Assembly: GCA_964500505.1 (NCBI GenBank)
Contig: CAZCNN010000001.1
Span: 2,621-66,620 of the forward strand
Length of the DNA stretch: 64,000 nucleotides
Direction of reading: 5' to 3'
DNA from: an uncultured Bdellovibrionales bacterium
Lineage (GTDB): Bacteria > Patescibacteriota > Minisyncoccia > Moranbacterales > UBA1568
Part shown: in pieces, positions 3,777-52,951 of the stretch
Numbering within the stretch: position 1 is the stretch's first letter
Layout: each line of letters begins with the position of its first letter
Notes under the pieces: model-generated
What the model was told of the DNA's origin: nothing
Databases searched by the model: none
What the model saw: the letters and a program-made list of their open reading frames with translations, nothing else
Translations under genes and position numbers: made by a program

Positions 3777-3813
3777 TCATCGTATCTTCCACTGGAGCCA
3801 ATAACATCTAACT

Positions 3814-10011: not shown

Positions 10012-10040
10012 TTGACCAAAAGGGGATTTTCGGCTATGCT
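10012..10040 (+). promoter_or_regulatory. Sigma70-like promoter TTGACC-17-TATGCT upstream of proS
   Basis: TTGACC lies at 10012-17 and TATGCT at 10035-40. The spacer contains the 15-nt motif AAAAGGGGATTTTCG. Confidence 0.45.
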
Positions 10041-10062
10041 GAAAGAAATTTAGGCTTATACT

Positions 10063-13033: not shown

Positions 13034-13042
13034 CATGATTCT

Positions 13043-14176: not shown

Positions 14177-14235
14177 AGTATCAGGACACATTTGGTACCT
14201 TTTCGCCGATTATTCGGCATCAACTGGAGTGGATT

Positions 14236-14562: not shown

Positions 14563-14587
14563 CGAGTATCGCAGTGGACACTGACGT

Positions 14588-14620
14588 CTGCGGTGAGGTC
14601 GAACGACCCGCCGCTTTTTT
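14588..14620 (+). terminator. Putative rho-independent terminator
   Basis: A GC-rich imperfect hairpin (GCGG...CCGCCGC) is followed by TTTTTT. Confidence 0.45.
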
Positions 14621-14869
14621 CTTGCCAGCGTTGTTCAAGAACGACGTGGCTTGCACATCTGATTATTCTGTGTCACAATAGTTCTGCTCAATCAGAGCGT
14701 TTTTTATTAAGGAATGGCCTCCCGCACAAATTCCGAAACGAGCTGGAGGAAATGGTAGGTCAGTTGCACGGAAACGCCTACGGCTCCGTGTTGCTACAAG
14801 GAAGATTTAATCTAGGAATTAAAGCGGGATGCTCATAAATGTAGCTCTTCGCTTCACTCAGAGACATTT

Positions 14870-19798: not shown

Positions 19799-20082
19799 AG
19801 TACCTCCAGTATACCGTAAAAGCGCTTCTTGTTCCATCGTAGTATCTCTTCCAAATCTCATGTCTTGAGAAAATGTTCAGATTTCGTGATGAAAATCTTG
19901 AAAAGTGAGAAAGGCTATATCCATAACCCGACGAGCTTTGAGAGGTTTTCAGCCGAAATCTGGACGTTTTATAAGACAAGCGCTTGTTTCGGGTTTATTT
20001 CGCGTTGAGATTTGGGAGAGATACTGGTTTGCCAAGGGAAACTCGTCGGGCTACAATAGAGGAAATTGCTTATATTCCCAAG

Positions 20083-24874: not shown

Positions 24875-24918
24875 AAGAGCGTCTAACAGTGAGAGTCCAA
24901 CTCCTTAAGACTTTTGGA

Positions 24919-26343
24919 ATGAAACGTTCAGAAATATACTTCAGTACGATACAGGTACCCGTCGACTTTCTTATGATTGTCCTGGCGGGGATTTCAGCGT
25001 ACTACCTGCGTGGACTCCCGATGTTTGAAGGGTATGTCTCGCGGGTGTTCAATATTTCTTTTGAAGACTATCTCTGGTTCTCTCTCTCCGTGGCACCACT
25101 CTTTCTCGTGGTGATTGCTTTTGAGGGTCTCTATACCATGCGGGCGACGCGTAGCTTTGGGAAAGAAGCCTATGGTATCGCACGGGCCATCACCCTCGGC
25201 CTCATTATCTTGGTGCTCGCTGTCTTTTTGAACCGTGAGTGGTTCTCGTCACGGTTCGTCATCGTCGTGGGTTGGGCGATTGCCATCGTCTATGTCGTCC
25301 TCGCTCGCTATATTATTCAGCGCATCCAGAAATGGTTTCTCGTCAATCGGAACGTCGGCATTCATCGTATCCTCCTCATTGGGTCCAACCAAAAGGTGTA
25401 CGCCTTGCGGAAGCTCCTCACCAAGAACAAACAGCTCGGCTATCGAGTCGTCGATCAGATCGATACGGCAAGTGTCGTCCAGGTCAAAGAAATCCGGGCC
25501 ATGAAGGGTGTGGACGAGATTATCGTGGGTGACCCGACGCTTACTGATGATGAGCAGGAGAAACTTTTTGACTACTGTCAGATCAACAACATTACCTACA
25601 AGTATTTTCCGACCACGCTCCAGACCCCGCGTTTCTCCATGAAGATTTTTAACGGGGAACCGCTCATCGAATTTCAGCATACCCCGCTCGATGGTTGGGG
25701 TCGGGTACTCAAGCGGACCTATGATATCGTGGCGGGATTTTTCCTCACAGTGCTCTTTTCACCGATCATGCTCGTGGTGGCCATCCTCATCAAACTCGAG
25801 GATCCAGATGGGCCGATTATCTACAAAAACGAGCGCATTGGCGAGAATGGAGTGAAGTTCTTTGTTTACAAGTTCCGCTATATGCAGTGGAAGTACTGTG
25901 TGACCAAGGACAATCCGCACATGGATGAGGCCATCGCCTACGAAAAGAAGTTGATCGAAGAGAAAAACGTAAGGAAGGGTGGTATCCTCTACAAGATCAA
26001 AGATGATCCACGCAAGATGCGGGTTGGGGCCTGGATTGAACGGTTTTCGTTCGATGAATTGCCCCAGTTTTTCAATGTCCTCGAGGGGACGATGTCACTC
26101 GTCGGACCACGGCCCCATCAGGAGCGAGAGGTCGACCGTTATGCGGAGTATCACCGGCGCCTCCTCACTATCCGTCCTGGTGTGACTGGGATGGCCCAGG
26201 TGTCGGGACGCTCTGACCTCGCTTTTGAGGATGAGTACCGGCTCGATGTATTCTACATTGAGAACTGGTCGCTGTGGCTCGATATCATCATCTGTCTCAA
26301 GACCGCTGGCGCCCTCCTCAGACGGCGCAAGAACGTGAAATAA
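24919..26343 (+). CDS. Polyprenyl-phosphate sugar phosphotransferase (WbaP/EpsL-type initiating transferase)
   Basis: N-terminal TMs are followed by a bacterial sugar transferase C-domain (LPQFFNVLEGTMSLVGPRP...RPGVTGMAQVSGR). The ATG at 24919 is preferred over the upstream GTG. Confidence 0.8.
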   Translation: MKRSEIYFSTIQVPVDFLMIVLAGISAYYLRGLPMFEGYVSRVFNISFEDYLWFSLSVAPLFLVVIAFEGLYTMRATRSFGKEAYGIARAITLGLIILVLAVFLNREWFSSRFVIVVGWAIAIVYVVLARYIIQRIQKWFLVNRNVGIHRILLIGSNQKVYALRKLLTKNKQLGYRVVDQIDTASVVQVKEIRAMKGVDEIIVGDPTLTDDEQEKLFDYCQINNITYKYFPTTLQTPRFSMKIFNGEPLIEFQHTPLDGWGRVLKRTYDIVAGFFLTVLFSPIMLVVAILIKLEDPDGPIIYKNERIGENGVKFFVYKFRYMQWKYCVTKDNPHMDEAIAYEKKLIEEKNVRKGGILYKIKDDPRKMRVGAWIERFSFDELPQFFNVLEGTMSLVGPRPHQEREVDRYAEYHRRLLTIRPGVTGMAQVSGRSDLAFEDEYRLDVFYIENWSLWLDIIICLKTAGALLRRRKNVK

Positions 26344-26803: not shown

Positions 26804-27979
26804 GTGAATTTGATAAAAAGAATTATCCGCGAGCTTCGTAAAAATAGTCTTCCTGATTTTGTACGGAAGACTCTTTTTTATACTCTTGGCAAAGGACGAC
26901 ATCTGTGGGCTTTGGATAAAAATTCTTGGCAGAAGAAAAAAGCAGAGAATTTTTTTGGACACTACACGCTTCCGCAGCGATCTGGAAAGGAGCAGGTCAT
27001 CGTTTTTATTTTGCCCGGGCTGTGGATTGCTGGGGGCATTGCTGTGATTTTGCAGCATGCCAATCTTCTCAGGAAACGCGGGTATCAAGTGAAGATTGTG
27101 ACACAAGATCTCAAGACTACAGTAGCGTGGTTTGAGAATCAGCGAGTGGAGATAGTACCCATCAGTGCCATCGAGCCCTTGCTAAAACAGGGTATAGATA
27201 TACTGATTGCTACTGGGTGGAATTCTGTCCCAACGGTAGATCTATTGCCTGCACGACGCAAGATGTATTTTGTTCAGTTGGATGAAAGACGTTTTTATCA
27301 AGATCAAACACTAAAGAGCTTCGTCGGAGAAACCTATCGAGTAGGGTTTGAATTTTTGACCATGGCGCATTTTCTCCAAGCATGGCTTCGGGAGGAATTT
27401 GATCAATCGTCTACTTATGTACCCAACGGTTTGGACGTGGCAGTGTTTCATCCTGTAGTGGTACGACAGACAACAACGGATAAAGTACGGGTACTGATTG
27501 AGGGTCCAATCAATATACCGTTTAAGGGCGTAGCAGAAGCATACGAGGCAGTTGCTGGTCTTGATTGTGAACTATGGCTGGTCAGCAGTAATGGTGTGCC
27601 ACCAGCTCATTGGAAATACGATCAATTTTTTGAGAGAACCCCGATTCATGAAATGCCCCAAATCTACTCTTCATGTGATATTTTGCTCAAGATGAGCACG
27701 GTTGAGAGCTTTTGTTATCCGCCACTGGAAATGATGGCCTGTGGTGGAGTGCCCGTGATTCTTGAGGTGTCAGGTATCGAAGAGTACGCCAGGCACGAAG
27801 AAAACTGTCTCATCGTGCAGAGTCAACAAGAAGCACGACAGGCTGTAGCTCGATTGATTGCTGATCCAGCGCTTCGTGCTCGGTTACGGCGAGGTGGATT
27901 GGAGACAGCCAAAAAGTGGAGCTGGGAGCGTTCTGTCGATGCTCTAGAAGAAGTGATACTCAGGGCTGATTCTCAGTAG
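26804..27979 (+). CDS. GT-B (GT4-like) glycosyltransferase
   Basis: The C-terminal motif FCYPPLEMMACGGVPVI is present. Confidence 0.65.
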   Translation: MNLIKRIIRELRKNSLPDFVRKTLFYTLGKGRHLWALDKNSWQKKKAENFFGHYTLPQRSGKEQVIVFILPGLWIAGGIAVILQHANLLRKRGYQVKIVTQDLKTTVAWFENQRVEIVPISAIEPLLKQGIDILIATGWNSVPTVDLLPARRKMYFVQLDERRFYQDQTLKSFVGETYRVGFEFLTMAHFLQAWLREEFDQSSTYVPNGLDVAVFHPVVVRQTTTDKVRVLIEGPINIPFKGVAEAYEAVAGLDCELWLVSSNGVPPAHWKYDQFFERTPIHEMPQIYSSCDILLKMSTVESFCYPPLEMMACGGVPVILEVSGIEEYARHEENCLIVQSQQEARQAVARLIADPALRARLRRGGLETAKKWSWERSVDALEEVILRADSQ

Positions 27980-28694
27980 GTTTATTTGTGAACACGAGGT
28001 AGTAGGCGAGAGTGGTACTGCCAATGATAAGGATTGTAAAGAGCGTAATGATAGACCAACCTCTGAGAATGACTGGTTTGTATTGTGAAAGACGATCAAC
28101 GAGGCGAGAGAGGTCGCCCGAGAGTGATCCACTGGTATAGGCAGGGCGCAGGAATAAAGTTTGACCCGGATAGACTTTGTTCTTGCTAGTGTCTATCAGA
28201 GTACGATCGGCAAAAACGGGGTCAGGCACATCAGTAGCGGAGAGGTAGGGTTTTTCACCCTTGCGATTTTCGTCGGAAAAATAAGTAGCAGAAAAGCAGT
28301 ATTTTTTATTTGTAGATTCGACTATAGCCGGAAAGGAAAATACCGTGTATGCCCCTTGCATAGGTGGCTTATGGTCATAAATATCGGACGCAAGTGTATT
28401 TTGACAAACTTCATCCAGGAGACGGAATTCAATATGTTCCCCGAACTTGATGTCAGAACGTCCCAGCACGACCCGGATCTGATGGAGGTTTGACTCTTTG
28501 GCGGCAAATGTCTGCATGACGGGAGATCCTGGGGAAAGGGTTATTTTTTTTGTTTTCCCTAAGAAATTGTAGCCGGATTCGCCGAGACCGAAACTTGTGA
28601 GAAAGGTCAAAAAAATACCAATCATGCCGAGCAAAAAAATACAGAAAAGAATTCCTTTATGGTATTTTTTAATGAGTTCAATATTTTTATTCAT
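27960..28694 (-). CDS. Hypothetical bitopic membrane protein
   Basis: TMs are predicted at both termini. It is the last gene of a minus-strand pair with the DUF2142-like gene. Confidence 0.45.
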   Translation of the reverse strand: MNKNIELIKKYHKGILFCIFLLGMIGIFLTFLTSFGLGESGYNFLGKTKKITLSPGSPVMQTFAAKESNLHQIRVVLGRSDIKFGEHIEFRLLDEVCQNTLASDIYDHKPPMQGAYTVFSFPAIVESTNKKYCFSATYFSDENRKGEKPYLSATDVPDPVFADRTLIDTSKNKVYPGQTLFLRPAYTSGSLSGDLSRLVDRLSQYKPVILRGWSIITLFTILIIGSTTLAYYLVFTNKPTENQP

Positions 28695-28700: not shown

Positions 28701-30152
28701 CTAGAGATAGTATCGAGGGATAATGACGTTTATGATAGCGTGAATCTGGAGGAGTATCATGGCGAGGGTGAGGGCTTTCAGCGCAAAAAGAAAATATCTT
28801 TCCTGTCGTAGGAGGAATCCAATACCGGTAGTAATAATGATGAGATGAGCAATGACATTTGGAAGGAAGTAACGACCAGGCTGGCCGATAAGAATTTGGC
28901 CAGTGTAGTCAAACACGCGCCAGTCATAGAAACGAATGGCTATTTGGAGAGCAATTATCATACCGAGAAAGAGTACGAGAAACCTCTTTTCGGGAAGATA
29001 CGTAAATTTTCTCTGAGAACAGAGATACCAAACGGTCCCAATGAAACCAACAATTGTGATGAGGATAATTACTGAAAGTGTCCAGTCTGGTATTGCATTA
29101 TCGAGCCAGCCGAAGTGCCCCCAATAAGACCGTGCGGTATCTCGCAGTTCGCCCGAACTGAGTGTCTTATCTAAGTATTTCCCTATGGATTCAATGGTAG
29201 AGCTGAATTTTGATTGCGCTGTGAAGTTAGTAATATTCACAAAATAGCTTTTTGGAATAATCAGAAATGTAGTGCTAGCAAGGAAGATGCTTGCGCCTGC
29301 GAGAAGTGTAAGAAATTTTTTGAGAGGTAGATTGAGTGCTCTATAAGAAGTCCATGCCAAGAGAGGATAGAGCATTGCGACGAGTACGATGCCTGGACCC
29401 TTGGAAAAGAGACCAAGTATAGCGGCTGAGATGAGCAGAAGGGCGTGGCTCCACGTTAGTCCATCTCGCAGTAAGGAAACGCCAGCGAATAGAAAAAGCG
29501 AAAATGCAAAAACGAGCGCAATGTCGATATTGACCTGGGCTGCAGTAATCGAAAACATCGGTTGAAAAGTAAGGACCATCGTAAGAAGTAGGGAGGCATT
29601 TTCCGATAGCCCAATTTTTTTAGCAGTTAGGTAGGCAAAGATAGTGACGCCGATACCGAAAAGAACTGCAAGAAAACGCATGGAGAAGATTCGTACAAAT
29701 ATATTTTCATCTGAAAGTAGGCGCTCTAACCAAGAAGAAAAAAGGTAGTAGATAGATTTGGTCCCAGAAGCATTGTCGGGGTAGGTATCTATGTATCGTT
29801 GCCAGTTGTTTGTGAGGATTTCGTTTTCTATATTCAGAGTAGAAAAGTTTTGGATATTCTGCTTCTCTGACTTTATTTCATCAAATTGTACAGCCTGAGC
29901 CGACCGAATAACCTCTTCGGAAAATCCATAGGTGGCTATATCAGCGCTGGAAAGCCTTCTACTCTCTAGTTTTCTTATTGGCCAGGTTTTGAGAGTCGGC
30001 TCAGCAAGAAACTGAGCGGTGCCGTAGTGTATCTGCTCATCTGGATTCTGAAATGCTGGTACGAGAAAGCTGAGAATAGCCCCTTTTACCAAAAAAAAGC
30101 AAAGGAGAGCAAAAAGAATGATTTTTTGGGTCGAAATTTTGCTGGAACGCAT
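28701..30152 (-). CDS. DUF2142-like polytopic membrane protein (putative glycan-processing)
   Basis: A conserved PDEQIHYGTAQF motif follows the first TM, as in DUF2142. Ten or more TMs are predicted. Confidence 0.5.
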   Translation of the reverse strand: MRSSKISTQKIILFALLCFFLVKGAILSFLVPAFQNPDEQIHYGTAQFLAEPTLKTWPIRKLESRRLSSADIATYGFSEEVIRSAQAVQFDEIKSEKQNIQNFSTLNIENEILTNNWQRYIDTYPDNASGTKSIYYLFSSWLERLLSDENIFVRIFSMRFLAVLFGIGVTIFAYLTAKKIGLSENASLLLTMVLTFQPMFSITAAQVNIDIALVFAFSLFLFAGVSLLRDGLTWSHALLLISAAILGLFSKGPGIVLVAMLYPLLAWTSYRALNLPLKKFLTLLAGASIFLASTTFLIIPKSYFVNITNFTAQSKFSSTIESIGKYLDKTLSSGELRDTARSYWGHFGWLDNAIPDWTLSVIILITIVGFIGTVWYLCSQRKFTYLPEKRFLVLFLGMIIALQIAIRFYDWRVFDYTGQILIGQPGRYFLPNVIAHLIIITTGIGFLLRQERYFLFALKALTLAMILLQIHAIINVIIPRYYL

Positions 30153-30202: not shown

Positions 30203-31069
30203 ATGAACGTTCTTGTTGGCGGTACCGGTTTTATCGGGACAGCCTTGGCGGAAAAACTAGTACAACAAGGAGAGGCAGTGATAAGTATCGCTCGAAGTAT
30301 TCCGGAGCAGAAGGTAGAAGGAGTGCTTTATCGTGCCATTGATATTTTTGCGTACCCAGAGCAACTCATCCCGATATTCGGCCATGGATCAGCTATTTTC
30401 TTGTTGACAGGACAGAATAGCGCTACATTTGATGCTGTGCCAGAATTAGAGGGATTCGGGAAAGTTTTGGATGTTGTAGCTGCATCTTCGCCGGAGAAAG
30501 TTCTGTTTACTTCAACGTCTTTGGTGTACGGTGAATGCGCTGAGGCAGCAAAAGAAGATCATGATCTTTTGCCGAAAGATGCCTACGCGCAGTTTAAAGT
30601 TTCATGTGAACAGATGATTCAAGAAAAACTGGCCGGTATTCCTGTTGCGATAGTGCGATTAGGAAATGTGTATGGATCAGAGAAGAATAAGGGGTTTATC
30701 GGTTTGGTATTAAAGAAAATTTCAGAGGGGATAGAAATAAAAGTGAATGGTGATGGACAGCAAGAGCGCGATTATGTTTTTCTTGATGAAGTGGTGTCCG
30801 CAATGCTTGCTGTGAAAGATAAGTTGAAGGAGTCAGATATAATAAATATTACTACTGGGAAAAGCGATACATTGCTTGGAGTGATAGCGCTTCTGTCAGA
30901 TGTTGTTGGCCGGTCTATCCCATTTTCCGTTACGGGGGTACCAGTCATGGAAACTCAAATAATTCGAGTTGATAATACCAAGTTACGAGAGAAGTACGGA
31001 TTTGTTCCGCAGATTTATCTTAAAGAGGGGCTTCAAAAAACATGGGAGCGGTATAAGAAAGAATATTAA
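30203..31069 (+). CDS. NAD(P)-dependent sugar epimerase/reductase (short SDR)
   Basis: The Rossmann motif VGGTGFIGTALAEKL and the extended-SDR fold are present. Confidence 0.6.
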   Translation: MNVLVGGTGFIGTALAEKLVQQGEAVISIARSIPEQKVEGVLYRAIDIFAYPEQLIPIFGHGSAIFLLTGQNSATFDAVPELEGFGKVLDVVAASSPEKVLFTSTSLVYGECAEAAKEDHDLLPKDAYAQFKVSCEQMIQEKLAGIPVAIVRLGNVYGSEKNKGFIGLVLKKISEGIEIKVNGDGQQERDYVFLDEVVSAMLAVKDKLKESDIINITTGKSDTLLGVIALLSDVVGRSIPFSVTGVPVMETQIIRVDNTKLREKYGFVPQIYLKEGLQKTWERYKKEY

Positions 31070-31075
31070 AATGAT

Positions 31076-32485
31076 ATGGCAGAGAATAATATCTTAATTA
31101 TCGGTGCTGGTAGGGCAGGGCGACTGCTGGCCAAGGATATTGATCAGAATGTTTCCGATGCCCATGTTATTGGTTTTATGGACGATCAGATTTCAAGTAG
31201 TACCTCGCTTAAGTACCTAGGAAATATCGATGAACTTTCTAAGATATCGAAGATTTACAAGGTGGATGAGATAATTATTGCTATTCCCTCTGCTGATGGA
31301 GCATTGGTACGACGTATTTTGATGAAAAATATCAAGAGTCGTATCCCGATTCGAATCGTGCCTCGCAACCTGCGTGTTATTAGCAAGAGTGATGTGAGGT
31401 ATTCCGAAGTTAAGCCACTTGATACGGAGGACTTCCTTGGTCGACCGTTTATTGATAAGAATATTGAACGATTGAAGAAGTTTTATCGAGGAAAAGTCGT
31501 TTTTATTACTGGTGGAGCTGGTTCAATTGGATCAGAAATTGTCCGCCAGCTTATCGATCTTGAGGTAAAAAAAGTGATTGTCTATGATAACTCTGAATAC
31601 TTGACCTTTCTTTTAGAGCAGCAGCTGAAGGAGCAAGGAACGCGTAATCGCTGCGAGCTGATTGTTGGCAATATTTTGCACAATAACAAACTGGATGCGC
31701 TTTTCTCTAGAATCAAGCCGGATATCGTTTTTCATGCCGCAGCCTATAAGCATGTGCATCTCATGCAGGATAATATCGATGAAGCAATTTACAACAATGT
31801 TATCGGGACAAAACGAGTCATTGATGCTGCCATAGATAATAACGTGAAGCTTTTTACCTTTATCTCAACTGATAAGGTGGTGAATCCAACGAGTATCATG
31901 GGTGCCACCAAAAAGCTCTGTGAGTATTATATTCAGTCACTCAAGCCAGCGAAAACGAAATTTAACATCGTTCGTTTTGGGAATGTTATCAATTCCAATG
32001 GATCAGCTCTTCCTCTCTTTGAGAGGCAGATAATGCTCCATAAGTATGTGACGGTGACTCATAAAAAGATGCAGCGTTTCTTCATGTCAATTCGTGAAGC
32101 ATCGTCACTGGTGATCGAGAGTACAGCTGAGGGGAAAGCAAATAGTATCCATATTCTCAACATGGGTGAGCTTATCAATATTTACGAGGTAGCATTGTGT
32201 CTTATCCGGTCAAAGAATCTCGTCCCTGATGAGGACGTGGAAGTAAGAATTATGGGGCTTCGAAAGGGAGAAAAAATGATTGAAGAGCTCTATACTGTAT
32301 CTGAGGGACAGGAGATGATAACGACAAAGTCAGGAAAAATATTCGCTCTCAAAAATCTTGCCGTTTGCCCAGTAGATATTATGAAGATCCTTGTAGAGTT
32401 GGAGGAACTAGTGAAGAATGGCAAGGGGAAAGCTATGTTACAAAAGAACATGCGAAATATATTTCCATCCATTAAATGGAAATAG
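31076..32485 (+). CDS. CapD/PglF/WbpM-type NDP-sugar 4,6-dehydratase (Polysacc_synt_2) lacking the TM region
   Basis: An N-terminal CoA-binding-like domain precedes an SDR core (VFITGGAGSIGSEIVRQL, YKHVHLM). Confidence 0.7.
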   Translation: MAENNILIIGAGRAGRLLAKDIDQNVSDAHVIGFMDDQISSSTSLKYLGNIDELSKISKIYKVDEIIIAIPSADGALVRRILMKNIKSRIPIRIVPRNLRVISKSDVRYSEVKPLDTEDFLGRPFIDKNIERLKKFYRGKVVFITGGAGSIGSEIVRQLIDLEVKKVIVYDNSEYLTFLLEQQLKEQGTRNRCELIVGNILHNNKLDALFSRIKPDIVFHAAAYKHVHLMQDNIDEAIYNNVIGTKRVIDAAIDNNVKLFTFISTDKVVNPTSIMGATKKLCEYYIQSLKPAKTKFNIVRFGNVINSNGSALPLFERQIMLHKYVTVTHKKMQRFFMSIREASSLVIESTAEGKANSIHILNMGELINIYEVALCLIRSKNLVPDEDVEVRIMGLRKGEKMIEELYTVSEGQEMITTKSGKIFALKNLAVCPVDIMKILVELEELVKNGKGKAMLQKNMRNIFPSIKWK

Positions 32486-32566
32486 TTTTGAATTTATATA
32501 AAGTAAGCTAATTCCAACTAGTTTTCTCGCGTGCTATATTATAGTTATACTAATTAAAAAAATGAT

Positions 32567-33121
32567 ATGGTAAAGAAGAGTATCAAGGTAATATTGAGTG
32601 AAATAGAGGCTGTTTTTGAACCTCTTGATGAGAGTCAGGTACTGGCATTGCGAGATGAAATTTTGAAAGCAAATAAGATTGTGGTGTGTGGTGCGGGGCG
32701 TGTTGGCATGGCGGTACGAGGATTTGGAATGAGGCTAGGACACCTTGGACTGAATGCGTTTACTCTTGGTGACTCGGTTGTGCCAGGAATTAGCAAAGGA
32801 GATTTATTCCTTGTTGCCTCAGGATCTGGCGAAACGCAGACTATTTATGACCTTGTTGAAATTGGAAAGAAAAATGGTGCGATGGTTGGGTTAGTAACTG
32901 GTAATCCAGAATCGAGAATGGGGAAGCTGGCAGATGTCTTGGTTCGAATTAGTGCGCCTTCAAAAACTAAGGCAGTGGAGGGTCTGGTTTCTATTCAACC
33001 CATGACAACTTTGAATGAGCAGAGTCTCGGTATATTTTTCGATGCTCTCGTGTTGGAGCTCATGGAAAAAATGGGAGAGACTCACGATACCATGTGGGCC
33101 CGGCATTCTAATTTGGAATAG
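32567..33121 (+). CDS. SIS-domain sugar-phosphate isomerase, 6-phospho-3-hexuloisomerase (HxlB/PHI)-like
   Basis: It aligns along its full length with the PHI pattern: VCGAGRVGMAVRGFGMRLGHLG...GDLFLVASGSGET...LGKLADVLVRI...IQPMTTLNEQSLGIFFDALVLELMEK. Confidence 0.7.
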   Translation: MVKKSIKVILSEIEAVFEPLDESQVLALRDEILKANKIVVCGAGRVGMAVRGFGMRLGHLGLNAFTLGDSVVPGISKGDLFLVASGSGETQTIYDLVEIGKKNGAMVGLVTGNPESRMGKLADVLVRISAPSKTKAVEGLVSIQPMTTLNEQSLGIFFDALVLELMEKMGETHDTMWARHSNLE

Positions 33122-33129
33122 ATACTGTT

Positions 33130-33804
33130 ATGCACGATCATACACAATGTCAGTTGGCAGCATCGATAATTTGCGGAAGCCCGTTGAATCTTGAGGTAGA
33201 TTTGGCCGCCTTGGAAAAAGGAGGGATTGATTATATTCATTTCGATGTGATGGACGGAGTATTCGTTCCGCGTTTTGGGCTGTTCCCGGAATATTTGAAA
33301 GCCATTCGTTCCAAGACGAATCTCCCCATAGAGGTTCATATGATGGTACAGGATCCGGAGCCGTATATTCAAGATTTTGTGAATGCCGGAGCAACGATGT
33401 TGACTCCTCATATAGAGCCACTCATGCATGCTCATCGTACGATAATGAAGATTAAAAGTGCGGGGGTACAGGCTGGATTGGCACTCAATCCAGGGACTTC
33501 TCTTTCGTCTCTTGATTCTGTCTTGGAAGATTTGGACCTAGTGATGCTGATGGCTATCAATCCTGGTATCGTCGGGCACAAGCTTATCCCGAGGACGCTG
33601 GAAAAGATCGCTGAATTGCGAAAAAAAATTGATGAAATTGATAAAAATGTACTGATAGAGATCGATGGCGGCGTGACTCTAGAGAGTGGAATCAGAATGA
33701 AACAAGCCGGAGCGAATATGCTTGTCTGTGGTACTGGAACAATTTTTCAACCGCCAGCGAAATTGGATGACAAAATCCGCGAATTCCGATTGACGCTTGA
33801 ATAA
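33130..33804 (+). CDS. Ribulose-phosphate 3-epimerase family enzyme (RPE/AlsE-like)
   Basis: HFDVMDGVFVP, EVHMMV, NPGT and EIDGGV all align with RPE catalytic and metal residues. The usual FVPN is FVPR here. Confidence 0.65.
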   Translation: MHDHTQCQLAASIICGSPLNLEVDLAALEKGGIDYIHFDVMDGVFVPRFGLFPEYLKAIRSKTNLPIEVHMMVQDPEPYIQDFVNAGATMLTPHIEPLMHAHRTIMKIKSAGVQAGLALNPGTSLSSLDSVLEDLDLVMLMAINPGIVGHKLIPRTLEKIAELRKKIDEIDKNVLIEIDGGVTLESGIRMKQAGANMLVCGTGTIFQPPAKLDDKIREFRLTLE

Positions 33805-33821
33805 TCTCTAGAAATACCGAA

Positions 33822-35405
33822 ATGAAAAAATCTACTGCATACAAAGTTCTGATTACGACGTCTGGTACCGGATCAAGACTTGGGGAGATTACTCAGTATA
33901 CAAATAAATCTTTGGTGAAAGTTGGTAAAAAACCGGCTATTTCTTATATCATTGAATCGTACCCGAAGAACACAGAATTCGTTGTGACAGTTGGATATTT
34001 TGGTGACCAAGTCTGTGATTTTTTGAAGCTTGTTTATCCTGACAGAGTCTTCAAATTTGTTAAGGTGGATAAGTATCAGGGTACTGGGAGTAGCTTGGGT
34101 TATTCTATGCTTCAAGCAGCGTCTCATTTGCAGTGTCCATTTATTTATCATGCATGTGATACTATTGTTTCCGGAATAAAAATTCTAACACCCAAGACAA
34201 ATTGGATAGGAGGATTTCGTGGAGAAGGATCGTCACACTATGCATCTTTCGATGTAGTGAATGGAAGAGTGGAAAAAATGCATGACAAGGGTATGATGGA
34301 TCCCGATTTTTTGCATATTGGACTAGTGGGAATACGAGAGTATGAATCTTTTTGGCGAACCCTCAAAGATCTCTACAAAAAAAACCAGAATAATAGCTCG
34401 TTGAATGATGTCGAAACTATCAGCGCGATGATTGAACAGGGGAAAAACTTTGGAGTAGTAGAATTTGGAACCTGGCATGACATAGGTAACGTGGAGAGTT
34501 TGAATAAGGCTCGTACAGAGATCGCGGACTCCTTTCGGATTCTTGATAAGTCAGACGAGTCGATATTCATATTTGATAAGTTTGTGGTGAAGTTTTTTTA
34601 TGATGAAAAAACTGTCGCACAGCGTGTTGCGAGAGGGAAACTTCTTAAGGGACTTGCACCTGAAATTGAAGGGTCAGCAAAGAATTTTTATCGCTATAAG
34701 TACGCAAACGGCAAATTGTATTCGAAAGTTGCTACCCCCATAGATTTTGAAAAGTTTTTGAAGTGGTCAAAAAAGAATCTTTGGAAATCAAATCATGAAG
34801 TGTCCGATCAGGAATTCAAGAAAATTTGTTATGATTTTTATTATATCAAAACATCGGAGCGAATCCAGAAATTTTTGACAACACGCAAAGTAAAAGATGT
34901 TGAAATGATTATTAATGGTGAGCAAGTTCCTACGATTAAGAAGATGCTCAAGATGATTGATTTTGATTGGTTGTGTAGCGCAGAACAAAGCGGATTTCAT
35001 GGTGATTTCATTCTGGATAATCTTTTGAAAGCAAAGTCAGGGTATGTACTTTTGGATTGGCGTCAGAACTTTGGAGGACTTCTGAAGTCAGGGGACATGT
35101 ACTATGATCTTTCAAAGTTAAATCACAATTTAACGGTGAACCACGAAATTGTGAACAATGATTTGTTTACTATTGAGGCAGGAGAAAATGAGGTTACCTG
35201 TGATATTTTCCGGAAGGAAAACCTCGTCCAGTGTCAGAAAGCCCTGTTTGAGTTCTTGGATAAGAACGGTTACAATAGTAAGAAGGTAAAGATTTTGACG
35301 GCCTTGATTTGGCTCAATATGTCGCCACTTCATCATCACCCATTTGATCGCTTTTTGTTTTATTTTGGGAAATTAAATCTCTGGCGCGCGCTTAACGAGA
35401 AATAG
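33822..35405 (+). CDS. Bifunctional sugar-1-phosphate nucleotidyltransferase (N-terminal) / APH-ChoK-type kinase (C-terminal)
   Basis: The N-terminus has LITTSGTGSRLGEIT (a GxGxRLxPxT-like NTP-transferase motif). The C-terminus has the Brenner motif HGDFILDNLL followed by VLLDW, as in aminoglycoside/choline-kinase-fold kinases. Confidence 0.65.
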   Translation: MKKSTAYKVLITTSGTGSRLGEITQYTNKSLVKVGKKPAISYIIESYPKNTEFVVTVGYFGDQVCDFLKLVYPDRVFKFVKVDKYQGTGSSLGYSMLQAASHLQCPFIYHACDTIVSGIKILTPKTNWIGGFRGEGSSHYASFDVVNGRVEKMHDKGMMDPDFLHIGLVGIREYESFWRTLKDLYKKNQNNSSLNDVETISAMIEQGKNFGVVEFGTWHDIGNVESLNKARTEIADSFRILDKSDESIFIFDKFVVKFFYDEKTVAQRVARGKLLKGLAPEIEGSAKNFYRYKYANGKLYSKVATPIDFEKFLKWSKKNLWKSNHEVSDQEFKKICYDFYYIKTSERIQKFLTTRKVKDVEMIINGEQVPTIKKMLKMIDFDWLCSAEQSGFHGDFILDNLLKAKSGYVLLDWRQNFGGLLKSGDMYYDLSKLNHNLTVNHEIVNNDLFTIEAGENEVTCDIFRKENLVQCQKALFEFLDKNGYNSKKVKILTALIWLNMSPLHHHPFDRFLFYFGKLNLWRALNEK

Positions 35406-35411
35406 GAATTT

Positions 35412-35939
35412 ATGGAAAAAAAAACGATTAAAAACTTCATATTGGATGTTGACGGTGTTTTTACCGACGGGAAATTTTACTATACTGTTGACGGTAAAGT
35501 GATGAAAAAATTTGGTCCAGAAGACAATGACGCTCTTACGCTCCTGAAAGATAGACTCCATCTCCATGCTATCTCGGGGGATAAGAATGGGTATGCGATT
35601 ACCAAAAGGAGGATTGCTGATGATATGCATCTTCCGTTGGATCAGGTAAGTACTTTTGAACGGATAGAATGGATTCGTGAAAGATTTGATCCAGAAGAGA
35701 CGGTTTATATGGGCGATGGAATATTTGATCCTCTTGTCTTCAAACATGTTGCGTATAGTATTGCTCCAGCGAATGCGTTTTATACAACAAAAGAACAGGC
35801 TGATTTTGTAACAAATGCTCGAGGAGGGGAAGGAGCAGTAGCAGAGGCGTGCCTCCATATACTGGAAAAATTCTTTAATGAGCCATTCGATGTGCATGTA
35901 CTAAATATTAAAAATGGCTCAGGAGCATGGAAAAAGTGA
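35412..35939 (+). CDS. HAD-IIIA phosphatase, KdsC/YrbI family
   Basis: ILDVDGVFTDGKFYY...DGKVMKKF.. and GDGIFD match the Kdo-8-P/Neu5Ac-9-P phosphatase family pattern. Confidence 0.7.
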   Translation: MEKKTIKNFILDVDGVFTDGKFYYTVDGKVMKKFGPEDNDALTLLKDRLHLHAISGDKNGYAITKRRIADDMHLPLDQVSTFERIEWIRERFDPEETVYMGDGIFDPLVFKHVAYSIAPANAFYTTKEQADFVTNARGGEGAVAEACLHILEKFFNEPFDVHVLNIKNGSGAWKK

Positions 35940-36003
35940 GCAGGAATGAGGAAAGAGTTAAAGAGGTGATGATTGAAGTAATAAGCTATATATGTAAAGA
36001 GGT

Positions 36004-36780
36004 ATGGAAACAATAAAAAGATTATTTGAAAAGGCTATCGAAAACCCGTACATGTATAAGCTTTATACTTTCAGGCTGAAAGGACCTCAGAAGGTGAAGC
36101 TTTTTTATAAGACGGAGGATCTCAACAAGGAGTACTATGAAAAGATAAAAGATCTCGGCTACAGAGAGCTTGAACATCAGATTGGAAGATTGGTGAATTT
36201 CAAGAATATCGTTCGAGACTGCGCTTCTTTGGAGGGAGATTTTGTGGAATTCGGCTGCTGGCGTGGCTTCTCGCTACTTTGGATGGCATATTTCATGGAA
36301 AGGAATGCCATCTTCGGAAAAAAGCTGATTGGGCTTGATGGCTTCATTGGGCTTCCCTACTCGGACGGCGGTTTTCGGAAGGGGAAATTTTCGAATACGT
36401 CGCGCAAAGAATGTAGGGATAATCTTCTAAAGAGTGATGAGTTATACGACGAGATAAAGAAAAAGGTGTTCGTTGGCAAGTTCTTGTATGAAGAAAAAGA
36501 GGCGATTTTGAATTACTTTAAACGATTGAGAGTCGACAAACTATGCTTCATTCACATCGACTGTGATATTTCACAGTCGGCCAAGCAGATATTCGAGATT
36601 CTTGTCGAGGGAGACTTGATAGCTGATAAGGCATTCATGCTCTTCGATGACTATGGAATAGAAGAAACTTTACGTGAAGAAATCGAGAAGTATTTTGCCA
36701 CGCAACGAGACAGGTGGAACATTTCCGTTCATTCAGAGTCAAAATTGACAAAAAATTTCATCTTTGAAAAGAAAAAGTAA
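36004..36780 (+). CDS. TylF/MycF-family SAM-dependent (sugar) O-methyltransferase
   Basis: The DFVEFGCWRGFS and IHIDCD motifs are present. Confidence 0.6.
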   Translation: METIKRLFEKAIENPYMYKLYTFRLKGPQKVKLFYKTEDLNKEYYEKIKDLGYRELEHQIGRLVNFKNIVRDCASLEGDFVEFGCWRGFSLLWMAYFMERNAIFGKKLIGLDGFIGLPYSDGGFRKGKFSNTSRKECRDNLLKSDELYDEIKKKVFVGKFLYEEKEAILNYFKRLRVDKLCFIHIDCDISQSAKQIFEILVEGDLIADKAFMLFDDYGIEETLREEIEKYFATQRDRWNISVHSESKLTKNFIFEKKK

Positions 36781-36842
36781 TTTCATCCGTATAGTAGCCT
36801 CACAAAATTTCAAAGATAACTTTAACGAGACTGTATCAACTT

Positions 36843-37979
36843 ATGGATTACATTGTTCGTGATAACAGTGTTTTGACAGGTAAAAAAAACCTTGAACCGC
36901 TTTACGTGTTTAGGGACTTTCCTGTCTTTATGGGGTGCACGGACCAAATGGATCAGACTACTGATATCAAAGCGGATATGAGTTTTGCTATCTGCCGAGA
37001 TACAGGAATTATTCATCTTGATAAACTCTTGCCGCTCGATCTCGTCTATCAAAGCCAGCATAATGACGGCATAGGCAAGATATGGCAAGATCACTACCTT
37101 GCATTTTCGAAGTTTTTGGAAACATTTTCTCCTAGGAAAATACTGGAGATCGGTGGTGCAAATGATTTTATTGCAAATGATTTTTTATCAAGAAATAGCG
37201 ATGCCAGATGGATTGTCGTGGAGCCACACCCTCTTTTCGATGGTAATGAAAAAATTCAGATAATAAAAAAGTGGTTCGATGCCTCATTTTCTTTGGATGA
37301 GAAGGTAGATACAGTCGTTCATTCGCATGTGCTGGAGCATACGTATGCACCGGTAGAGTTCATCGAGCATGTCGCTAGGTTTCTAAATAATGGGGAACGC
37401 CATATTTTTACCTTTCCGAATATGACCGAGATGCTTTCAAAAAAATACACAAACTGCCTGAATTTCGAACACACGGCTTTCTTAGCAGAGCCCTTTGTTG
37501 ATACGTTACTTGAGCGCAGCGGATTTCGGATTCTTAAAAAGGAGTATTTTCAGGATCATAGTATTTTTTATGCTACGGAACGTGTTGCCGATTCAGATAG
37601 ATCAAAAAAAGAATTACCGAATAAGTACGAGGAATATAAGAAACTATTTACAGACTTTATTCAGTATCATGAGGATTTGGTTGCTAGTCTCAATCAGAAA
37701 ATTCACGATTTCGATGGAGAGGTCTATATATTTGGTGCCCATATTTTTTCGCAGTACCTACTTGAGTTCGGGTTGGATCAGAGTCGAATCAAATGCATAC
37801 TGGACAATTCACAGCTGAAAAATAAAAAACGTCTCTACGGAACAGGGCTTATTGTGGAAAACCCGGAAGTCATACGAGGTGTCGAAAAAGCCTGTGTTAT
37901 ACTGAAAATCGGTTCTTATAGAGAGGAAGTGATGAAGCAATTGAAAGAGCTGAATGCGAATGTCACAATACTAGAATAG
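36843..37979 (+). CDS. Class I SAM-dependent methyltransferase with C-terminal C-methyltransferase-type domain
   Basis: A central EIGGANDF methyltransferase motif is present. The C-terminus has a Methyltransf_14-like nucleotide-binding fold (VYIFGAHIFSQYLLEFGLD...ILDNSQLKNKKRLYGTGLIV). Confidence 0.55.
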   Translation: MDYIVRDNSVLTGKKNLEPLYVFRDFPVFMGCTDQMDQTTDIKADMSFAICRDTGIIHLDKLLPLDLVYQSQHNDGIGKIWQDHYLAFSKFLETFSPRKILEIGGANDFIANDFLSRNSDARWIVVEPHPLFDGNEKIQIIKKWFDASFSLDEKVDTVVHSHVLEHTYAPVEFIEHVARFLNNGERHIFTFPNMTEMLSKKYTNCLNFEHTAFLAEPFVDTLLERSGFRILKKEYFQDHSIFYATERVADSDRSKKELPNKYEEYKKLFTDFIQYHEDLVASLNQKIHDFDGEVYIFGAHIFSQYLLEFGLDQSRIKCILDNSQLKNKKRLYGTGLIVENPEVIRGVEKACVILKIGSYREEVMKQLKELNANVTILE

Positions 37980-38004
37980 CGAAGTTATTTCCAAATCTTT
38001 CATC

Positions 38005-39282
38005 ATGCGACTCGTTTTAGTGAATCCACATACTCAAAATTTCGGGAAAAGCGTATCCGGAGTCCTGCTTAGGAGAAAAGATTTTATGAAGTATGATTAT
38101 TTCATCGAGTTCTTTATACGGGACAAAAAAAAGGATGTTGCTTTTTTGATAGATGGTACGAGAACTTCATTCAGCGGTGTTGGTCTCGCGGCTATTTTTT
38201 CATGGAAGCTTTTTTCATGGTTGGAGCTAGTAATTTGGATGTTAATAAATAAAATAAACCCGTTTGATATTGAGGTATATTTTGATGTTACAGGACTTGA
38301 TCCAAAGAATGACGTCCTATTCGAGTTTTCCCGATCGATTGTGGACATTGATAGTCAAGAAAAGCTCCAACTCAATAGATTTGAAGGGTTAAAAATTGTT
38401 CATTTCACGCACTATTTTAAAGACGTCAAAAAACTTGCTCAATACCTTAAAAAGGCTCAGAATTATATTGTTGTTGCCGAAAATAACCTCACCAAAAATG
38501 TTTTTTTTAAGAAATACTTTAGTTTTATAAATAATGTCTATTTATTGCCTTTTGCATATGGAAAACGGTTTGTTGTGGAGAAAGACTTTAATTTGCGGAT
38601 GAACAAATGTCTCGCTCTCGGATCCATCACACGCGTAAAGAATAAAGAATTCTTGGATCATTTTGGCGATCAAGAAGGTTTACACCCAATGAGAAAATTG
38701 ATATATTCTGATCCTAAAAAGTATGTAAATGAAATTGATTGTTTGATTCGCGGGTTTAATGACACGATGACTGTTAGGGATCTCCAGTCAGTCGATTCTT
38801 TTCTTGCGAGGATGATGAAGAGATTTCTTCCATTTTTTCTATTAGAGAAATTCTTTCCAACACCGCAGATATCGTATTTTAAATTTGATATTGTTGCGAA
38901 ATTTAATGACTATCGGATGTTTTTATGTTCCGAAGAATCGGTAGGTTTGCCCTCCATAAATGTATTTGAAGGGATGGCAACAGGGTGTGTTTATGTTGGC
39001 ATTGATGATCCAATGTACATGGCGTTAGGCATGCAGCCAGGAGTACATTATATTGGGTATCAAGAAAATAATATTGACGATCTCCTGCAAAAAATTCAAT
39101 TTTATCAAAATAACCCTGTTTTACTTCAAGACATAGCTCGAGCAGGCTGTGCTTTTGTTCAAGAAACTTTTTCTAGAAAAACCGTTGCTGATGTTTTTTG
39201 GTGCGATCTCATAAAAATCTCACAGAACTTTTCCAAAATCAAGTCGACTGATTTTGTATGTTCATTTGAGAGGAAGTACTGA
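38005..39282 (+). CDS. Glycosyltransferase-like protein (GT-B C-terminal motif)
   Basis: The C-terminal EESVGLPSINVFEGMATGCVYV motif resembles GT1/GT4. The N-terminal half is unassigned. Confidence 0.45.
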   Translation: MRLVLVNPHTQNFGKSVSGVLLRRKDFMKYDYFIEFFIRDKKKDVAFLIDGTRTSFSGVGLAAIFSWKLFSWLELVIWMLINKINPFDIEVYFDVTGLDPKNDVLFEFSRSIVDIDSQEKLQLNRFEGLKIVHFTHYFKDVKKLAQYLKKAQNYIVVAENNLTKNVFFKKYFSFINNVYLLPFAYGKRFVVEKDFNLRMNKCLALGSITRVKNKEFLDHFGDQEGLHPMRKLIYSDPKKYVNEIDCLIRGFNDTMTVRDLQSVDSFLARMMKRFLPFFLLEKFFPTPQISYFKFDIVAKFNDYRMFLCSEESVGLPSINVFEGMATGCVYVGIDDPMYMALGMQPGVHYIGYQENNIDDLLQKIQFYQNNPVLLQDIARAGCAFVQETFSRKTVADVFWCDLIKISQNFSKIKSTDFVCSFERKY

Positions 39283-39286
39283 TTGT

Positions 39287-40558
39287 ATGATTGCTGGAAA
39301 AAACAGAACTGAACACTTTTTCGACTGGATGAATAAAAAAACCGGTCTAGATTTCCGATATTTTCTTTTAAATGGGAACTGGGTCTCGCTAAGATTTTTA
39401 GTCGTGAGTTTAACTGGATTTACGCTATCATTTTTCTTTACAAATTTTGGTTCAAAAGAATTATTGGGGCAATATCAACTTGCACTTTCAATATTGGCAA
39501 TCGTCTCCTTGGTTTCTTTCCTTGGACTTAATTCATCCGCTATGGAAGGGGTTGTGCAGGGGAGGGACGCCAGTGTGTTTAGGGCAGCGAGACTTATTTT
39601 TTGCTTTAGTTTGATAGGTAGTCCTATCTTGATAGCACTTGGACTGTATTATACTTTTATTCTTGAGCAGTCTGTATTCGGTAGTATGTTGATGTTTTCA
39701 GCATTTCTTTTTCCTTTTTTTTACGCAACTAGTTCTTGGAATATTTTTTATGAAGGAAAGCAACTATTTAAAGAGTCGGCCTTGAGAATTATTACCTTGA
39801 ATCTCATACTGACAGGCGCTCTGGTCGTCGCAATATTATTGGATTTAAATGCATTCTGGCTTTTAGGGATTTACCTCGGCGTCAGTATTATTTTACAGGC
39901 AAAATTTCTTCTTACCATTTTTCGAGATCTGCGTGATCGTACACATGATTATATTGATACGAAGTTTGGTATAGCTGTCTCATTTCAAAAATTCGTTTCG
40001 GGACTTTCAAGTAACTTGCCGCCGTTAGTAATTTCCTTTTTCTTTGGAATAGAAATTCTTGCGATTTATTACATTGCTTATTTTGTAGTAAGTGCTTTCT
40101 CGTCATTTCTTAACAATATATTTTCACTATATTTACCTATTCTTTTTAAAAAGGTTGCATTGAACCATCGAAGTATTCTGTTGAATAGCGTCATCACTGG
40201 CGTCTTAGGCTGGCTTGCTTTTATTATCTTTTTGAAATTCTTTTTTATTCGAATATATGGAGATGGATATCAGGACAGTTTAAGATTAGCTTACGCAATC
40301 TCATTTTTGTTGTTACTTATACCCTTACATACATACCTTGTCGGATTTTTTTCAACAAGAAGAAAAAACAGATTTCTTATTTCTATTTTTATACTAGCAA
40401 ATTGTATCGGAGTTCTGGAAATCTATTTTATGAACCATCTCGGTTTTTTTTGGAGTATAATAACATACCTTTATACTCTGGAAATTATCACAACGCTCCC
40501 TCTCTTGGGATACTATGTATACCAAATAACGAGCACCTCTAAGAGAGTTAGCCCTTAG
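39287..40558 (+). CDS. Wzx-type oligosaccharide flippase (MOP superfamily)
   Basis: About 12 TMs and a polysaccharide-biosynthesis-protein-like topology are predicted. The ATG lies 4 bp after the upstream stop. The upstream TTG in the ORF track is rejected. Confidence 0.6.
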   Translation: MIAGKNRTEHFFDWMNKKTGLDFRYFLLNGNWVSLRFLVVSLTGFTLSFFFTNFGSKELLGQYQLALSILAIVSLVSFLGLNSSAMEGVVQGRDASVFRAARLIFCFSLIGSPILIALGLYYTFILEQSVFGSMLMFSAFLFPFFYATSSWNIFYEGKQLFKESALRIITLNLILTGALVVAILLDLNAFWLLGIYLGVSIILQAKFLLTIFRDLRDRTHDYIDTKFGIAVSFQKFVSGLSSNLPPLVISFFFGIEILAIYYIAYFVVSAFSSFLNNIFSLYLPILFKKVALNHRSILLNSVITGVLGWLAFIIFLKFFFIRIYGDGYQDSLRLAYAISFLLLLIPLHTYLVGFFSTRRKNRFLISIFILANCIGVLEIYFMNHLGFFWSIITYLYTLEIITTLPLLGYYVYQITSTSKRVSP

Positions 40559-47700: not shown

Positions 47701-47744
47701 AGGACAGCTACAAATAGCAATTAACAATCAGAGGAAACAGAGAG

Positions 47745-52840: not shown

Positions 52841-52951
52841 AATGAGAAAATCGGTGTTTCAGACGTGTTACAATAAGTATAACAGCAATTTTTAACCTCA
52901 CAAAGTCCAAGTTTATCGCTATTTGGCAGATAATGGACTTTTTGATACTAT

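Follow-up and report, generated by a model that had tools for sequence, protein, structure and literature searches.

The heptose pathway (GmhA; HddA/HldE; GmhB; HddC) combines a SIS isomerase, a C1 kinase, a HAD-IIIA phosphatase and a nucleotidyltransferase (NTase), with kinase and NTase fused in HldE. Bacteroides FKP carries an N-terminal sugar-1-phosphate nucleotidyltransferase (GDP-fucose pyrophosphorylase) and a C-terminal L-fucokinase on one polypeptide, and the LicA/LicC system (fused LicCA) pairs an APH/ChoK-fold kinase with a LicC-type NTase. In the ribulose monophosphate (RuMP) system, 6-phospho-3-hexuloisomerase (PHI, HxlB) interconverts fructose-6-phosphate (F6P) and D-arabino-3-hexulose-6-phosphate. 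In the Pseudomonas MurNAc route, the HAD phosphatase MupP turns MurNAc-6-phosphate into MurNAc, AmgK produces MurNAc-1-phosphate and MurU forms UDP-MurNAc (PMC5371407), and GatZ and KbaZ epimerise F6P to tagatose-6-phosphate at C4 (PMC11907403). We identified a cassette of four genes that resembles each of these systems in part on a 64,000-nucleotide stretch (the window) of contig CAZCNN010000001.1 from an assembly deposited as an uncultured Bdellovibrionales bacterium and classified by GTDB in the Patescibacteriota. The cassette probably serves the de novo synthesis of a nucleotide-activated rare sugar for the glycan encoded around it, starting from a central ketose phosphate that is most likely F6P.

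The cassette consists of four ORFs on the + strand, all present as initially annotated and separated by intergenic gaps of 8, 17 and 6 nt. The third ORF (33822–35405) encodes a fused NTP-transferase and APH/ChoK-fold kinase, here named NTK. The encoded proteins and domains are:

32567–33121, + strand: SIS isomerase of the HxlB/PHI (6-phospho-3-hexuloisomerase) type, 184 aa (TIGR03127)
33130–33804, + strand: RPE-family epimerase (ribulose-phosphate-binding barrel) of a putatively distinct subfamily, 224 aa (PF00834, TIGR01163)
33822–34532, + strand: N-terminal nucleotidyltransferase domain of NTK, residues ~1–237, RmlA/LicC/GlmU fold
34533–35405, + strand: C-terminal APH/ChoK-fold kinase domain of NTK, residues ~238–527
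35412–35939, + strand: KdsC/YrbI-like HAD-IIIA phosphatase, 175 aa (TIGR01670, below cut-off)

These genes are part of a same-strand gene run (30203–40558). The G+C content is 35–46% over ~27–55 kb and 50–55% in the flanks, in agreement with the low-GC glycan island described initially, and Pfam scans delimit ~20–57 kb (19984–57000) as one large glycan locus with housekeeping genes on either side.

The assignment of the SIS protein to the HxlB/PHI type was confirmed, as it passes the PHI equivalog model TIGR03127 (187.2 bits, cut-off 160). It matches Bacillus subtilis YckF/HxlB (1m3s) with an E-value of 2.6e-36 and keeps the C-terminal H-x-N-L-E motif, and the bifunctional HxlAB model aligns to it solely across the PHI half. 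It is not a plain GmhA ortholog, the GmhA models falling far short (TIGR00441, 17.3 bits versus 209; NF001628, 20.3 versus 265), and the KdsD model reaches 31 bits against a cut-off of 505. No HPS/HxlA or OMPdecase-type ORF was found among the scanned window ORFs or the recurrent neighbour families.

The second protein is an RPE-family barrel (PF00834, E 3.5e-60) with the catalytic residues H37, D39, H70 and D179 and the methionine cushion Met41/72/141 present and conserved, so that both the RPE/AlsE-family 3-epimerase assignment and its intact catalytic His/Asp stand. It scores narrowly above the rpe equivalog TIGR01163 (217.5 versus 212.6) and below the cut-off of the AlsE model (157.8 versus 271), and its nearest solved structures are all ribulose-5-phosphate (Ru5P) epimerases. 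The canonical FVPN and NPGFGGQ motifs, seen in the alignments of 1rpx and 7b1w, are replaced by FVPR(Y/F)G and NPGIVGHK throughout 44 module-linked epimerase homologues (R48 and GIVGH147–151 in the window protein). Because of this consistent replacement the RPE-like protein is, as judged from its motifs, a distinct subfamily that is neither canonical RPE nor AlsE.

Structural matches to the NTK domains include LicC and LicA as the best single ones, with identities of 14–21% that are no better than those to RmlA, APH(4) or fructosamine-3-kinase. The kinase domain has the APH fold and lies outside the GHMP (HddA) and ribokinase (HldE) families, and the matches of the NTase domain are scattered over enzymes that use UTP, dTTP, CTP or GTP, none of which stands out. 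The HddC model gave no match for the window NTK and 23.7 against a cut-off of 300 for its Campylobacter concisus homologue, and NCBIfam holds no specific model for NTK. Orthology to MurU was rejected (NF045761, 29.5 bits versus 250; NF045697, 15.8 versus 370). Database names for NTK are 'phosphotransferase', 'nucleotidyltransferase family protein' and, for some members in JGI, 'choline kinase'. Homologues of NTK number >2000 matches, the best 120 of which are 58–97% identical, and the named matches derive from lineages of the candidate phyla radiation (CPR), namely Moranbacteria, Microgenomates, Gribaldobacteria, Azambacteria, Levybacteria and Pacebacteria. Judged from these best matches, the window probably stems from a CPR genome of Moranbacteria-like type. 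For the kinase domain, 391 relatives with E-values up to 1e-30 were recovered from cluster representatives at 50% identity; they cover a large number of CPR/Patescibacteria classes as well as Bacteroidota, Chlamydiae, Campylobacterota, Desulfobacterota, Firmicutes and DPANN archaea. With the limit relaxed to 1e-10 the number rises to 815, and fused proteins of ~525 aa make up most of the best 150. One NTK homologue (P0226, 724 aa) has an N-terminal GIY-YIG/NUMOD3 homing-endonuclease module, which suggests a mobile endonuclease inserted beside or into the NTK gene.

The HAD protein is KdsC/YrbI-like with its DxD motif present and matches KdsC/YrbI models only (TIGR01670, 76.4 bits versus a cut-off of 106.95; NF007019, 67.8 versus 208), none of the GmhB type. 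Its KdsC-type matches in the PDB have E-values of 3.9e-14 to 2e-11, and the top match overall (E 3e-18) is to 2p9j, a hypothetical protein without a name. No KdsA/KdsB-like neighbour was seen in the Pfam scans of the window. The original family calls for both the fused NTP-transferase and APH/ChoK-fold kinase and the KdsC/YrbI-type HAD hold.

Linkage of these genes was assessed in 80 loci fetched from GTDB species representatives, onto which homologues of the window genes were mapped (ORFs called as stop-to-stop translations, table 11); counts are given over 82 non-redundant loci, all of them outside the window genome. The order SIS-RPE-NTK-HAD recurs in contigs of four CPR lineages, with HAD shifted to the front in one. 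The gene neighbourhood is conserved, SIS-RPE-NTK-HAD being the commonest arrangement with a following C-methyltransferase-like gene (CMT; 14 loci) or without it (seven loci). HAD lies ≤6 kb from NTK in 69 of the 82 loci (43–88% identity), and it does so with two types of front end: type A, composed of SIS and RPE-like genes, and type B, composed of a GatZ/KbaZ-like gene and a small cupin of the phosphomannose isomerase (PMI) type. SIS is found in 43/82 loci, directly 5' of RPE-NTK, and the RPE-like gene in 47/82, never alongside GatZ-like or cupin genes; the latter occur in 28/82 and 25/82 loci, respectively, and no locus mixes elements of both front ends. Enough flanking DNA was available for 53 loci, comprising 31 with SIS and RPE, 18 with GatZ-like gene and cupin, three with the GatZ-like gene alone and one with neither, so that a front end of one type or the other is present in 52/53. 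The exception is a Gracilibacteria locus, whose ORF calls were probably disrupted by a different genetic code. The four-gene linkage is not due to chance, and the genes act as one functional unit, as the initial annotation had proposed in treating them as a module.

Type A front ends are hosted mostly by CPR bacteria, as well as by Bacteroidota and Chlamydiae, and type B front ends by C. concisus, Arcobacter, Geobacter, some CPR bacteria and archaea. Where NTK is ~37–40% identical to the window protein, the locus has HAD (43–60% identity to its window counterpart) and as a rule the methyltransferase, but neither SIS nor RPE; the hosts of such loci are the cultured isolate C. concisus, Arcobacter, Wolinella, Geobacter, Paraglaciecola, Legionellales, Oscillospiraceae, melainabacteria and DPANN archaea. 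The gene order in C. concisus is PglK-like ABC transporter, methyltransferase, HAD, 384-aa protein, 115-aa cupin, NTK, CMT and 939-aa protein. The 115-aa cupin matches PF01050 (mannose-6-phosphate isomerase C-terminal; 33 bits versus 23.6). The C. concisus 384-aa protein taken as a single sequence matches GatZ/KbaZ weakly and gave nothing significant in a PDB search, and a profile of the family (23 members) retrieved Escherichia coli GatZ (2fiq, E 1.6e-7) and 3txv (E 5.5e-7). Type B loci within the CPR include L031, L043 and L048, as well as L050 with the GatZ-like gene only and L057 with the cupin only. Locus L050 also has an inositol-monophosphatase-family phosphatase (3594–4511) next to its KdsC-like HAD; this enzyme may take the place of HAD or carry out a second dephosphorylation.

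Gene fusions link NTK to the type B front end, as NTase-kinase-GatZ-like in P0225 (897 aa) and as cupin-NTase-kinase in P0258 (773 aa); no type A fusion joining SIS or RPE to NTK occurs among the fetched loci. A 2.3-kb tblastn match in L054 was rejected as a larger fusion, its length being explained by an extra NTase upstream of NTK (of the long tblastn matches, which also include L010, L021, L045, L052 and L053, those of L054 and L050 were resolved by ORF scan). In a neighbour-joining tree of NTK the front-end types are interleaved, with type B L043 grouping with type A L047, L037 and L062, type B L050 with type A L027, and a Lachnospiraceae locus with a divergent SIS and RPE pair nesting in the type B clade. 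The type B NTKs of CPR bacteria are 52–56% identical to the window NTK, which is the same range as for CPR type A NTKs. Because the types interleave in the tree and these identities overlap, the sequences suggest a common intermediate supplied by either front end. The isomerase and epimerase pair is replaced as a unit by another putative pair, while phosphatase, kinase and NTase stay. Such a pairwise swap is expected if the pathway first remodels a sugar phosphate and next shifts its phosphate in preparation for nucleotide activation. The swap also rules out mere co-location of isomerase and epimerase, an explanation considered at the outset, and argues against a choline-type substrate as a likely one.

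The resemblance to the heptose pathway built from non-orthologous enzymes was upheld, in that isomerase, kinase, HAD phosphatase and NTase are all present and kinase and NTase are fused. The cassette differs from that pathway in having a PHI-type enzyme for GmhA, an APH fold for the ribokinase or GHMP kinase, a KdsC-like protein for GmhB and an extra epimerase, and its substrate is probably a hexose and not a heptose. A heptose pathway of GmhA and HddA/HddC was rejected on model scores and kinase fold. With MupP-AmgK-MurU, which together with the heptose pathway is the closest precedent, the back end of the cassette shares three folds (HAD, APH-fold kinase and NTase), but its HAD is KdsC-like, its kinase and NTase are fused, the MurU model scores poorly, its substrate would be made de novo by an isomerase/epimerase pair and not recycled from the cell wall, and it lies within a glycan locus with methyltransferases. 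NTK has the layout of FKP, with NTase followed by kinase in one chain, but the kinase of FKP, an anomeric sugar kinase, belongs to the GHMP family and salvages external sugar, whereas that of NTK has the APH fold and would receive its sugar from linked biosynthetic enzymes. The combination of APH/ChoK-fold kinase and LicC-type NTase recalls LicCA, from which the cassette is set apart by low identity, by the absence of LicB and LicD among the scanned window ORFs and by the obligate linkage of NTK to sugar-phosphate enzymes. Finally, the PHI-type SIS protein and the type B GatZ/KbaZ homologue represent two families that both use F6P. Unlike the RuMP and galactitol systems, the cassette lacks a hexulose-phosphate synthase partner and would serve nucleotide-sugar synthesis and not formaldehyde fixation or galactitol catabolism; the type B GatZ-like family is also very divergent from GatZ/KbaZ and was recovered only by the family profile.

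The protein families, intact catalytic motifs, conserved linkage and fusions and the non-orthologous exchange of front ends are established, and from them we infer every chemical step of the following route. The PHI-type SIS protein would move the carbonyl of F6P from C2 to C3, giving 3-hexulose-6-phosphate, if the regiochemistry of its family is kept. D-arabino-3-hexulose-6-phosphate corresponds to Ru5P plus one carbon at C1, and its C4 matches the carbon inverted by RPE, at equal distance from the phosphate. The RPE-like enzyme would accordingly be placed to invert C4, yielding 4-epi-3-hexulose-6-phosphate in equilibrium with tagatose-6-phosphate. The KdsC-like HAD would remove the distal 6-phosphate and the APH-fold kinase domain would phosphorylate the activation hydroxyl, which is probably anomeric; the phosphatase could act before the kinase or, via a bisphosphate, after it, because MupP-AmgK-MurU and the heptose pathway provide a precedent for each. 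The fused NTase, by virtue of the fusion and its conserved catalytic residues, would couple the sugar phosphate to NMP to form an NDP-sugar, which linked methyltransferases would tailor and a linked glycosyltransferase and flippase would place in a surface glycan.

By analogy with the enzyme families, our leading guess for the sugar is the C4-epimer series of F6P (tagatose, 4-epi-3-hexulose, talose), favoured because it is the only series that both front ends can reach with known family regiochemistry; the series would also take in talose-6-phosphate if the cupin genuinely works as a PMI-like aldose-ketose isomerase. A narrower version, which we put forward as a possibility with considerable doubt, has both front ends converging on D-lyxo-hex-3-ulose 6-phosphate (the RuMP intermediate epimerised at C4), which would be activated as an NDP-3-ketohexose or a C-methylated branched derivative. 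Type A would reach it by the PHI carbonyl shift followed by the RPE-family enzyme acting as a 3-hexulose-6-phosphate 4-epimerase, and type B by C4 epimerisation through the GatZ-like enzyme followed by a C2 to C3 carbonyl shift through the cupin; a TylC3-type methyltransferase would then make the branched derivative of the 3-ketohexose.

Two further schemes keep the nucleotide sugar but change the epimerisation. An AlsE-like enzyme could convert F6P to allulose-6-phosphate (C3), from which the SIS protein would produce allose- or altrose-6-phosphate for conversion via a 1,6-bisphosphate and HAD to NDP-allose or NDP-altrose. AlsE belongs to the RPE family and its model does match the epimerase (E 2.9e-46), SIS domains are commonly aldose-ketose isomerases (GmhA and KdsD matches were obtained), the heptose pathway is a precedent for the sequence of kinase, HAD-IIIA and NTase, and TylF-type methyltransferases are linked to the module. 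We nevertheless regard this scheme as unlikely, given that the AlsE score is far under its cut-off, that two substrate-site motifs differ from RPE and AlsE alike, that the SIS protein passes the equivalog of PHI, a 2,3-ketol and not an aldose-ketose isomerase, and that the type B front end is built on a C4-epimerase homologue, so that the C3 series is beyond the reach of both front ends. A pentose route, with 3-epimerisation of xylulose-5-phosphate (Xu5P) and Ru5P, isomerisation to arabinose-5-phosphate by SIS and formation of an NDP-pentose as in the GDP-D-arabinose salvage of trypanosomatids, would draw on the passed rpe equivalog, the Ru5P epimerases among the closest structures, weak KdsD/GutQ (arabinose-5-phosphate isomerase) matches of the SIS protein and the reliance of CPR genomes on the non-oxidative pentose phosphate pathway. 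It appears improbable, as the KdsD/GutQ scores are 22–31 bits against cut-offs of 481–505 while the PHI cut-off is passed, a GatZ-like and PMI-type cupin front end represents hexose-6-phosphate chemistry, and the conserved motif changes separate the epimerase from housekeeping RPE. The substrates suggested initially, allulose-6-phosphate or Ru5P/Xu5P, and the aldose 1-phosphate suggested as product are conjectural: the FVPR/GIVGH motifs fit neither RPE nor AlsE, and the GatZ-like protein points to the C4-epimer and not the C3-epimer (allulose) series.

The remaining schemes detach the front end from the back end. If NTK acted like LicCA on a small alcohol (choline, ethanolamine), forming a CDP-alcohol for glycan decoration, the neighbouring isomerase and epimerase would have nothing to do with it. 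The top kinase-domain matches do include LicA and choline kinases, and some members are called 'choline kinase' in JGI, but identity to LicC and LicA does not exceed that to RmlA, APH(4) or fructosamine-3-kinase, a sugar-phosphate-type front end accompanies NTK in all but one of the well-flanked loci, NTK is fused to GatZ-like (P0225) and cupin (P0258) domains, and the scanned window ORFs gave no LicD or LicB family match, all of which makes a CDP-alcohol product very improbable. We give hardly any credence to a role of SIS and RPE in central carbon metabolism, as a reverse RuMP shunt or in the pentose phosphate pathway, with a merely incidental position in the glycan island. Both proteins do exceed housekeeping-family thresholds; against this stand the missing hexulose-phosphate synthase among scanned window ORFs and recurrent neighbour families, the location within a low-GC glycan locus, and the strict synteny with NTK and HAD across phyla, with the pair swapped elsewhere for GatZ-like and cupin genes.

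Several observations weigh against the proposed synthesis of a rare nucleotide sugar from F6P. The epimerase lies just over the rpe cut-off and could be an ordinary Ru5P 3-epimerase. In the NTase domain, the Arg of the GxGxR motif (NTK residues 14–21, window 33822–33900) gives way to M, P, S, N, A or G in a large number of homologues, and an extra stand-alone NTase is found directly upstream of NTK in L054 (Saccharibacteria, 9992–10720) and a similar one in L050 (unclassified bacterial metagenome-assembled genome (MAG), 2823–3539); the fused domain may, by its sequence, be degenerate or inactive in some lineages. With LicC and LicA among the best structural matches, activation of a non-anomeric phospho-alcohol is possible. 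Loci L052, L054 and L066 are without cupin and HAD and L050 is without cupin; such loci, and those with an added NTase or phosphatase, mean that the pathway has variants. The NTK tree has no support values and its interleaving is suggestive only. Should the cupin genuinely isomerise between aldose and ketose, the front ends would differ in their products, with talose-6-phosphate as opposed to a 3-ketose or the allulose series, and the argument for a shared intermediate would fail. Many MAG taxon labels are also unreliable, with loci 60–79% identical to CPR sequences labelled 'uncultured Bdellovibrionales' or 'Gammaproteobacteria'.

The gene run continues downstream of the cassette with tailoring and transfer genes, and further glycan genes lie on both sides:

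36004–36780, + strand: TylF-type O-methyltransferase, accessory tailoring enzyme (PF05711, E 3.3e-12)
36843–37979, + strand: methyltransferase with TylC3/mycarose-3-C-methyltransferase architecture (Methyltransf_23 and Methyltransf_14, Pfam)
38005–39282, + strand: putative glycosyltransferase, weak GT90 / GT1-like C-terminal half (PF05686, PF13524)
39254–40558, + strand: Wzx-like polysaccharide flippase, last in the same-strand run (weak PF01943 match)
24889–26343: Bac_transf priming transferase
28701–30152 and 57820–60099, both − strand: two PMT/DUF2142-like GT-C membrane glycosyltransferases, bracketing the locus
45808–47727, − strand: AsnB-like amidotransferase
54358–55668: UDP-glucose/GDP-mannose-type dehydrogenase

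A tie between the downstream methyltransferases and the module, anticipated in the initial annotation, is supported by the presence of CMT with NTK in 46–51 of the 82 loci, with both front-end types, and by a TylF-NTK fusion (P0087, 778 aa); TylF-type O-methyltransferases occur in 10–11 related loci. Both Pfam domains of the window methyltransferase at 36843–37979 exceed their cut-offs (29.0 and 28.5 bits), and in a weak alignment with 4rv9 the E-H pair is preserved. The glycosyltransferase at 38005–39282 (PF05686, 29.8 bits; PF13524, 30.2 bits) has homologues downstream of the module in 16–18 loci and is a candidate user of the activated sugar. In 19 loci, with front ends of either type, the methyltransferase is followed by a member of a ~380-aa family (L001, 12184–13326; L008, 14318–15454); its sole family match is a weak C-terminal Cupin_2, and it may be a further tailoring enzyme or a transferase. 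In L001 and L004 the module is bordered by Polysacc_synt flippases, and an ABC exporter adjoins it in the CPR locus L006. In the C. concisus locus (L085), the PglK-like ABC transporter (5485–7200) opens this gene run on its upstream side, and the 939-aa ORF directly after the module methyltransferase (12716–15535) has no Pfam or NCBIfam match.

The glycan locus contains about a dozen GT1/GT2/GT4 genes in addition to the Wzx-like flippase and the PMT/DUF2142-like GT-C proteins. The AsnB-like amidotransferase and the dehydrogenase suggest an amidated uronic acid, and the bracketing GT-C pair hints at transfer from lipid-linked sugar at the membrane's outer face. The SDR genes at 30203–32485 were rejected as members of the cassette, as they co-occur only in the closest relatives (L009, L011); by sequence the pair looks like a UDP-GlcNAc 4,6-dehydratase/reductase system for another sugar of the locus. 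Four − strand ORFs inside or adjoining the glycan locus had no Pfam match, three at E ≤ 1e-4 (48905–51037, 710 aa; 27960–28694 and 52919–53653, 244 aa each) and one at E ≤ 1e-5 (18020–19861, 613 aa). Antisense ORFs of 92–174 aa (33082–33435, 33873–34151 and 35373–35897, − strand) overlap the cassette genes and have counterparts in related loci; they are shadows of the conserved sense genes and no evidence of genes. At the left edge of the window is an ATPase (40–2157) that resembles TrwB/type IV coupling proteins and carries a treble-clef zinc finger.

All proteins of the cassette belong to known superfamilies, and its underlying logic, with kinase, phosphatase and NTase, is not new. The combination of enzymes, the recruitment of RuMP- and GatZ-type enzymes to nucleotide-sugar synthesis, the two interchangeable front ends and the product appear to be undescribed. 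The initial view that the combination is not a described pathway is upheld by the curated family libraries, database names and literature searched; the literature gave no description of the enzyme set or of an NDP-tagatose, -talose, -allose or -3-hexulose pathway, a weak absence given that subscription journals were mostly outside the search. If the product is derived from D-lyxo-hex-3-ulose, it would represent a sugar class new to glycans, a new reaction of the RPE family and a biosynthetic use of RuMP chemistry. The cassette is common, and it also illustrates modular evolution, with one back end of phosphatase, kinase and NTase served by two unrelated epimerase/isomerase pairs, and its enzymes could serve the production of rare-sugar nucleotides. 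The type B version in the cultured, human-associated C. concisus makes the product identifiable by ordinary genetics and glycan analysis. CPR bacteria rely on contact with their hosts at the cell surface, and to our knowledge almost nothing is known of their surface sugars; a conserved, dedicated nucleotide-sugar pathway provides a concrete handle on CPR surface chemistry.

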